NCBI GenBank assembly: GCA_001003205.1
Contig: LCOU01000002.1
Span: 1-24,507, forward strand
From: Parcubacteria group bacterium GW2011_GWA2_47_8b
GTDB lineage: Bacteria > Patescibacteriota > Minisyncoccia > UBA6257 > WO2-44-18
DNA length: 24,507 nucleotides
Direction of reading: 5' to 3'
Shown piece after piece: positions 4,903-5,592 of this stretch (within the stretch, counting starts at the first letter, position 1; every line of letters starts with the position of its first letter). The translations under genes were made by a program, and so were the position numbers. A model generated the notes under the pieces. It saw only the letters and a program-made list of their open reading frames with translations. It had not been told where the DNA came from and made no database searches.

Positions 4903-5014
4903 AAACTTGACAGAATTACCAAAACAGTGTGAAACACTGTGTTAAACACCGGAAATATTTTGAGCTTAAACCTAAACAAATGTTTCACGTGAAACATTTG
5001 TTTAGCGTGAAACA
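4903..5014 (+). repeat. Left arm of a 112-bp inverted repeat flanking yraN
   Basis: Ungapped match to the reverse complement of 5481-5592 at 100/112 positions by manual count, including perfect 37-bp (4925-4961) and 34-bp (4981-5014) blocks. Confidence 0.95.
4981..5014. promoter_or_regulatory. parS pair: one perfect site and one variant
   Basis: TGTTTCACGTGAAACA (4981-4996) equals the canonical chromosomal parS; TGTTTAGCGTGAAACA (4999-5014) matches 14/16; 2-bp spacer. Confidence 0.85.
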
Positions 5015-5022
5015 TCCCTCAA

Positions 5023-5433
5023 TCAAATATTTTCGTAGTGAGTTATTTTGTTTGCCGGCAAACAAATGGCCAGTAAATCTATTCGCCAGCCTTTTTGTTC
5101 GTTAACAAATTCCGGATGTTTGCCGGCAAACAATTGCGCGGTTCTCTGAAGCTTTTTTAGCTTTGCCGAAGTAAGATTATCCTCTGGCGTTAATGCGGCA
5201 ATATTACGGCAACGCTCATTTTGGATTGCCGAATTGCCGCATTCGTTATCGATCGATTGCCGAATTGTTTTAACCTCAACAAAAACAAGAACCCTTGCCG
5301 GGTCTATGGCTATAATGTCCAGTTCGCCCCAGGGCCTGCGGTAATTACGATCAATAATCTTATAATTCTTGCCGATTAAGTATTGGCAGGCCAAATCTTC
5401 TCCTATTTTTCCAACTTCTGATTTACTTGTCAT
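5023..5433 (-). CDS. yraN: YraN (UPF0102) family PD-(D/E)xK nuclease
   Basis: GKIGEDLACQYL..KNYKIIDRNY...WGELDIIA...LVFVEVKT...RIDLLAI pattern. Start set at ATG 5433 because upstream starts lie inside the parS array. Confidence 0.88.
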   Translation of the reverse strand: MTSKSEVGKIGEDLACQYLIGKNYKIIDRNYRRPWGELDIIAIDPARVLVFVEVKTIRQSIDNECGNSAIQNERCRNIAALTPEDNLTSAKLKKLQRTAQLFAGKHPEFVNEQKGWRIDLLAICLPANKITHYENI

Positions 5434-5434
5434 T

Positions 5435-5514
5435 TGTTTAGCGTGAAACAATTGTTTCACGCTAAACAATGTTAATCAAGTGTTTCACGCTAAACAAATG
5501 TTTCACGTGAAACA
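5435..5514. promoter_or_regulatory. parS cluster: four sites directly upstream of yraN
   Basis: TGTTTAGCGTGAAACA (5435-5450), TGTTTCACGCTAAACA (5453-5468 and 5481-5496) and perfect TGTTTCACGTGAAACA (5499-5514). Confidence 0.85.
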
Positions 5515-5592
5515 TTTTTCTAACCTTGAGCTTAAAATATTTCCGGTGTTTAACACAGTGTTTCACACTGCTTTGCCTATTTTGTCAAGTTT
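5481..5592 (-). repeat. Right arm of the 112-bp inverted repeat flanking yraN
   Basis: Reverse complement of 4903-5014 at 100/112 positions. Confidence 0.95.

Follow-up and report, generated by a model that had tools for sequence, protein, structure and literature searches.

A predicted ParB-loading centromere enclosing the nuclease gene yraN in a Parcubacteria genome

A parS cluster around a nuclease gene

The nuclease gene yraN of Parcubacteria group bacterium GW2011_GWA2_47_8b lies within a 690-bp unit that carries all parS-type sites of the assembly save one. We read this unit as the chromosomal centromere of this groundwater bacterium with its small genome, an array of predicted ParB loading sites, and propose that its occupancy by ParB would also place yraN under control. 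We put the probability of this reading at about 0.7. The window analyzed here is the entire contig LCOU01000002.1 (24,507 nucleotides) of an assembly with 45 contigs, 451 kb in total and a completeness of 67%. Centromeres of the parS type are textbook elements: dimers of ParB clamp onto the DNA at parS in a CTP-dependent manner, spread into a partition complex and recruit SMC. No description of a centromere tied to one gene across an order was found in the literature searched, and full-text searches returned neither a report of a parS-yraN link nor an account of parS in Patescibacteria.

The sequence-only reading of this DNA had reported six parS-type 16-mers (two perfect, four copies of a single variant) in pairs with an 18-bp period, and a motif scan confirmed all of this. 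The 16-bp palindrome TGTTNCACGTGAAACA is present in perfect form at 4981-4996 (TGTTTCACGTGAAACA) and, in the right arm of the unit, at 5499-5514. The variant TGTTTAGCGTGAAACA departs from the consensus by two mismatches, at two central positions, and occurs in either orientation at 4999-5014 (+ strand), 5435-5450, 5453-5468 and 5481-5496 (right arm). The six sites form three pairs, each at exactly 18-bp spacing, where shuffling predicts 0.06 sites of this type. The pair at 5435-5450 and 5453-5468 is arranged head to head in a perfect 36-bp palindrome (5434-5469) that abuts the ATG of yraN. The same variant makes up all six sites of a sister species, L059, that is described below. When the whole 451-kb assembly was scanned for further copies at up to two mismatches, only these six and one site outside the unit were returned. 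That outlying site, TGTTTCACGTCAAACA at 18609-18624, has one mismatch and lies inside iscS, 13 kb from the cluster; by a rough estimate about 0.01 sites with one mismatch are expected by chance across the whole assembly.

Two additional palindromes with parS arms and a GCCGGC core lie inside yraN itself. One, at 5049-5064, is read as CLPANK in a hypervariable loop of the protein, and the other, at 5117-5132, is read in a different frame as LFAGKH. In another genus the same loop of yraN bears a similar site in yet another frame. The reading of these intragenic sites in differing frames points to selection on the DNA and not on the protein. Among the sites of relatives, the TGTTT and AAACA arms and the central CG are kept in nearly all, and the two bases flanking this CG vary, giving cores of CACGTG, AACGTT, AGCGCT, GCCGGC and ACCGGT. 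In one metagenomic relative (L072:1844-2429), 12 parS-armed sites stand upstream of yraN with a period of about 43-52 bp, and the canonical CACGTG core is missing from all of them (TGTTTAGCGCCAAACA is one example).

An inverted duplication bounds the unit

The unit is bounded by two arms that were recovered by an inverted-repeat search, the left one at 4903-5014 (+ strand) on the 3′ side of yraN and the right one at 5481-5592 (− strand) on its 5′ side. Each is 112 nt long, and the two are 89% complementary, ungapped and 466 nt apart, which reproduces the 112-bp inverted repeats (100 of 112 positions matching) described earlier. About 78 nt of each arm lack self-complementarity, which makes the pair a genuine inverted duplication instead of a by-product of the parS palindromes. 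The left arm carries TTGACA, two parS half-sites and then the perfect and the variant parS; in the right arm the variant and the perfect parS come first, followed by a core at 5534-5570 and TTGACA. This 37-nt core, at 4925-4961 (+ strand) in the left arm, has one and the same sequence in the two arms of this unit and the two of L059; it is present only in arms, being absent elsewhere in the genome and among the fetched loci. It holds two direct parS half-sites, GTGAAACA and GTTAAACA, 12 bp apart, and these are the tandem 12-mers (4926-4949) that had been noticed from the sequence together with an inward TTGACA. The second half-site of the left-arm core lies 48 bp ahead of the perfect parS. The TTGACA boxes were also recovered, at 4907-4912 (+) and, as its mirror, at 5583-5588 (−), with no variation among the four arms of the two species. 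A sigma-70 type promoter scan found no acceptable −10 element after either box, and the idea that they serve as promoters is unsupported. An Rfam scan of the window returned three tRNAs and nothing else.

The concern that one arm might be an assembly duplication had also been raised, and both arms are backed by independent data. Logan contigs of four independent groundwater/soil runs carry arm-specific pieces of the locus (4403-4954, 5488-5563 and 5541-5631). A JGI metagenome contig (L058) shows 99.4% identity over 6.4 kb and an identical layout. The second species, L059, comes from a different aquifer and has the same architecture, with a YraN that is 87% identical, flanks at 72-84% DNA identity and arms of 150 nt that are 95-96% alike. 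The arm-specific contigs of the four runs, together with L059, rule out an assembly artefact. Long inverted arms around yraN were seen only in the window, L058 and L059; one further genus shows a weak arm resemblance (87 nt, 77%). In a genome of the same genus (G001) the contig ends at the expected locus, and this genome was therefore left out of the arm comparison.

The enclosed gene encodes a nuclease of the YraN family

The yraN gene (5023-5433, − strand) encodes a UPF0102 PD-(D/E)xK nuclease of 136 aa. The open reading frame matches the Pfam UPF0102 profile (PF02021) with 72.7 bits against a cut-off of 23.6 (E 3e-20), and the catalytic residues D39, E53 and K55 (D, E-x-K) are intact and align with PDB 3FOV. 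The gene boundaries are as the sequence-only reading gave them: the stop codon is 8 bp from the left arm, and the ATG is 1 bp from the parS at 5435. The accompanying premise that YraN is a relative of junction resolvases is outdated, as a recent preprint shows that YraN acts as an ssDNA endonuclease, has the ComM helicase as an interaction partner and is required for D-loop processing in transformation (bioRxiv 10.1101/2024.02.06.579203). The present genome resembles that ComM-YraN pair in its intact YraN catalytic motif and in the presence of ComM, a 512-aa Mg_chelatase/ComM frame on its own contig (C28); counting this genome, ComM was found in 40 of 41 searched. The preprint gives no link to parS or segregation, whereas the unit described here has a parS array.

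The relation of comM, parS and yraN differs among relatives. In G007 the order is comM, parS array and yraN on a single strand, and in many remoter metagenomic lineages comM adjoins yraN without parS. The G007 locus (L032, G007:C19, 2911-5690) has comM, nine parS-type sites, five of them perfect, and yraN in a row. Within the window, two yraN alleles were seen at 5043-5152 that differ at six positions and have similar depth, both being present in runs X2 and X7. One of the differences (5122 G>A) hits an internal GCCGGC-core site.

parS is linked to yraN across the order

Comparison of yraN neighbourhoods across relatives, which the sequence-only reading had proposed as a check, came out in favour of an association. 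Canonical parS (up to one mismatch) was found in 15 of 40 same-order relatives, and in 11 of these 15 the sole cluster lies within about 0.5 kb of yraN; in the remaining four the parS cluster is not beside any detected yraN. When the relaxed pattern TGTTT-N6-AAACA was used, 14 of 20 relatives' loci held 2-10 sites within 1.1 kb of yraN, and the rest of those 8-15 kb loci contained just one such site in total. The array stands mostly 5′ of yraN in all 15 order-level loci with arrays, and a parS-type site ends 1-9 bp ahead of the yraN start codon in genera g1, g2, g7 and g9. The neighbouring genes change between families, and the parS-yraN pairing persists. Genera differ freely in the size of the array, in its period (18, 27 or 48 bp) and in the core sequence. 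In a sample of the class, at least two parS were present in 7 of 30 yraN loci and at least one in 9 of 30, mostly 5′ of the gene and in a few cases inside it. In other classes of the phylum, none of 30 sampled loci had parS at yraN. The linkage is strong in the order, patchy in the class and absent from the sampled loci of other classes.

ParB, SMC and origin proximity in the clade

ParB, ParA and DnaA were not found in this 67%-complete assembly, and the case for a cognate ParB and for origin proximity therefore rests on relatives. ParB_N is present in 39 of 41 relatives, the same genus included, and the ParB of G001 has the GERRxRA/GERRWxA motif and scores 174 bits against a TIGR00180 cut-off of 58. 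All 20 genomes of the family encode ParB, most of them (the same-genus genome among these) with a single ParB_N gene; some relatives have two or three ParB_N proteins. In the 16 relatives with both genes on one contig, 6-60 kb separate dnaA from yraN; these genomes measure about 0.5-1.3 Mb, and the locus bears parS in most of them. On these distances we take the unit to be the origin-proximal centromere of the clade. A centromere was one of three readings proposed from the letters of the DNA, and it gains from the restriction of parS to this cluster, from the position of the pairing in relatives and from their ParB. GC skew in the window follows gene strand and is uninformative on the origin.

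A search for ParA (PF13614) gave hits in 2 of 20 genomes of the family and in 12 of 20 from other families. In the two exceptions, both of family f1, parA is paired with a second parB on a small contig. A short SMC of 721 aa is encoded in G000 (contig C25:2518-4683; L175:519-2684) and passes the TIGR02168 cut-off in two stretches; the usual size of SMC is about 1180 aa. The SMC_hinge profile (PF06470) had no match in five family genomes, and the same search also missed two control genomes that do encode SMC. The 721-aa protein appears shortened and is perhaps hinge-less.

These features bring the unit close to the Spo0J-type ParB-parS system of Bacillus subtilis, with which it shares the 16-bp palindrome, the small number of sites per genome, origin proximity (in relatives) and the presence of canonical ParB and SMC in the clade. 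Unlike that system, the unit packs all its sites into about 0.6 kb around one gene, with 18-bp pairs and mirror arms. The central bases of its sites vary (TGTTT-NN-CG-NN-AAACA), ParA was not found in the family, and the array is tied to yraN across an order. The relaxed central bases, a family in which ParA was not found and a short SMC are likewise undescribed in the literature searched.

Inversion of yraN and history of the arms

In four other genera of the family, yraN is co-directional with conserved neighbours in the order metK, sigma-like gene, yraN, VTT/DedA-like gene, PLD and CofD. The window and L059 depart from this in yraN alone, which is reversed relative to the sigma-like, VTT, PLD, CofD, RecA and FtsK genes. 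Since these neighbours keep their orientation and only yraN is flipped, the interior between the arms was inverted in this lineage. The flanking parS units are direct repeats in genus g2 and inverted repeats in this genus, and mirror arms with an inverted yraN are a genus-specific feature. An inversion between parS-bearing repeats would have flipped yraN alone and left two mirror arms, which may since have been kept alike by gene conversion.

The arms themselves bear on this last step. Both arms of each genome have the same state of a 30-bp indel, which sets the site spacing at 18 bp here and at 48 bp in L059, and the type of the first site is also common to both arms within each genome. The shared indel state and first-site type argue for exchange between arms. 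By substitution identity, the arms of the window are 88% alike, which is no higher than the 86-88% between species, and those of L059 are 96% alike compared with about 87% between genomes. Because the window arms are no closer than arms of different species, the argument for gene conversion draws on the common indel and site type and on the 96% identity in L059.

Proposed function of the unit

A ParB encoded elsewhere in the genome would load on the parS array and build the partition complex, with the array, in this order of bacteria, anchored to the 5′ side of yraN. ParB on parS would then organise the origin region and recruit SMC, as in Streptococcus pneumoniae. The combination of ParB with a short SMC, in a family in which ParA was not found, suggests that the system probably works as it does in that organism. 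ParB occupancy would further dampen or time the expression of yraN. The parS sites that end 1-9 bp before the start codon in four genera make such control probable. An argument for control from the Shine-Dalgarno motif was dropped, as most window genes lack the motif.

The analogy for control of a gene comes from S. pneumoniae, whose competence operon comCDE is repressed as ParB spreads from one parS (PMC4488948). The likeness of the unit to parS(-1.6 deg)/comCDE consists of a ParA-less ParB-parS-SMC system and of a parS beside a transformation-related locus under ParB occupancy. The S. pneumoniae site is single and spreads over more than 5 kb onto a regulatory operon, whereas the array of the unit abuts the start codon of a nuclease, where control is proposed by analogy.

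A fuller version of this proposal would make the centromere and the transformation nuclease gene a functional unit in one order. The ParB complex on the 5′ region of yraN would gate the expression of a nuclease able to cut any ssDNA, and the relaxed TGTTT-NN-CG-NN-AAACA grammar, the intragenic sites and self-homogenising mirror arms would be parts of the design. We offer this version tentatively and consider it rather improbable as a whole. If true, it would link the processing of D-loops during natural transformation to the state of the origin in replication and segregation. Natural competence is known in at least some CPR bacteria (Saccharibacteria). If ParB loading and yraN are physically linked, this would suggest a coupling of DNA uptake and recombination to the chromosome cycle in organisms not yet cultivable by themselves. 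The locus also offers a natural series for the study of ParB specificity, with perfect, AGC-variant and GCCGGC-core sites and half-sites, and its mirror arms present a small, datable case of inversion and concerted evolution at a centromere.

Alternative readings

The attachment of a real centromere to yraN could be a frozen accident that has no function, in which an ancestral array beside yraN grows and shrinks by slippage. Tight adjacency alone could hold parS and yraN together without a functional link: the gap of 1-9 bp between the proximal site and the start codon in the family means that rearrangement breakpoints would seldom split the two, and with so few base pairs between sites and gene a purely historical linkage is a serious alternative. 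The free variation of array size, period and core between genera, and a linkage that is found here and there within the class and in none of the 30 loci sampled from other classes, are what such a history would leave. It fits less well with an array that stays mostly 5′ of yraN in 15 order-level and 9 class-level loci despite differing neighbours, with the lack of any parS arisen elsewhere in those genomes, save in four relatives, where the cluster lies away from any detected yraN, and with the parS-like sites kept inside the coding sequence in two reading frames. We regard a functionless attachment as possible and would not favour it. A different division of labour, in which the perfect sites alone serve ParB and a second protein, either a Noc-like ParB paralogue or a repressor dedicated to yraN, uses the variant and GCCGGC-core sites as operators, would agree with the recurrence of GCCGGC-core sites in register with the arrays in several genera and with the two or three ParB_N proteins of some relatives. 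Most family genomes, however, the same-genus one included, have a single ParB_N, and L059 has variant sites only; with no perfect site there, the variant must serve as the L059 centromere, if L059 has one. Separate operators are thus unlikely, and we retain the reading in which variant sites too would be bound by ParB.

The arms could alternatively belong to an active switch, with the 466-bp interior flipping between them through RecA or an unlinked recombinase. Inverted repeats do bound the segment, the interior is inverted relative to other genera, the arms look homogenised and recA is 6.5 kb away. Both arms bear the same inward elements, however, so that a flip would leave the driver of yraN unchanged and be neutral for expression; the inversion does not alter the relation of promoter and gene. 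The interior has one orientation in the window, in the independent contig of 99.4% identity and in the second species, and a Pfam scan of 17 window ORFs found no invertase and no tyrosine or serine recombinase. Orientation was also viewed in Logan k=31 contigs from 20 runs that hold the locus; these show no strand-changing joints, yet they break within the 37-nt identical inner arms. Joints near 4998-5499 that skip the interior were set aside, as their sides are only 20-24 nt long and derive from common parS words. The invertible switch suggested by the sequence-only reading thus survives as a past inversion, in which yraN alone was flipped, and present-day switching is improbable. The other suggestion made there, a mobile parS-nuclease cassette with terminal inverted repeats, has in its favour the inverted arms of 112-150 nt around one nuclease gene. 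Against it, a search for further arm copies found none beyond the two arms, the arm core occurs twice in the genome and in no other locus, and yraN is syntenic with other genera. As the unit is a single copy in a syntenic position, with no target-site duplication at the arm ends and no transposase, we reject the mobile cassette as very improbable and keep the centromere reading.

Neighbouring sequence

The interval that separates the right arm from the VTT gene (5600-5920) contains a structured element rich in palindromes. Parts of 5608-5784 are found again, at 83-94% identity, on four or more contigs of G001, the genome of the same genus, and contigs of three runs, at about full depth, connect 5623 with 5827 through 7 other letters. 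The element looks like a MITE-like repeat family. Farther downstream, CofD of the window (10535-11366) appears split. A 162-aa ORF matches profile positions 1-125 of 290, the CofD proteins of relatives have 316-337 aa, and the second half may correspond to an ORF that overlaps the 162-aa one, at 10989-11366.
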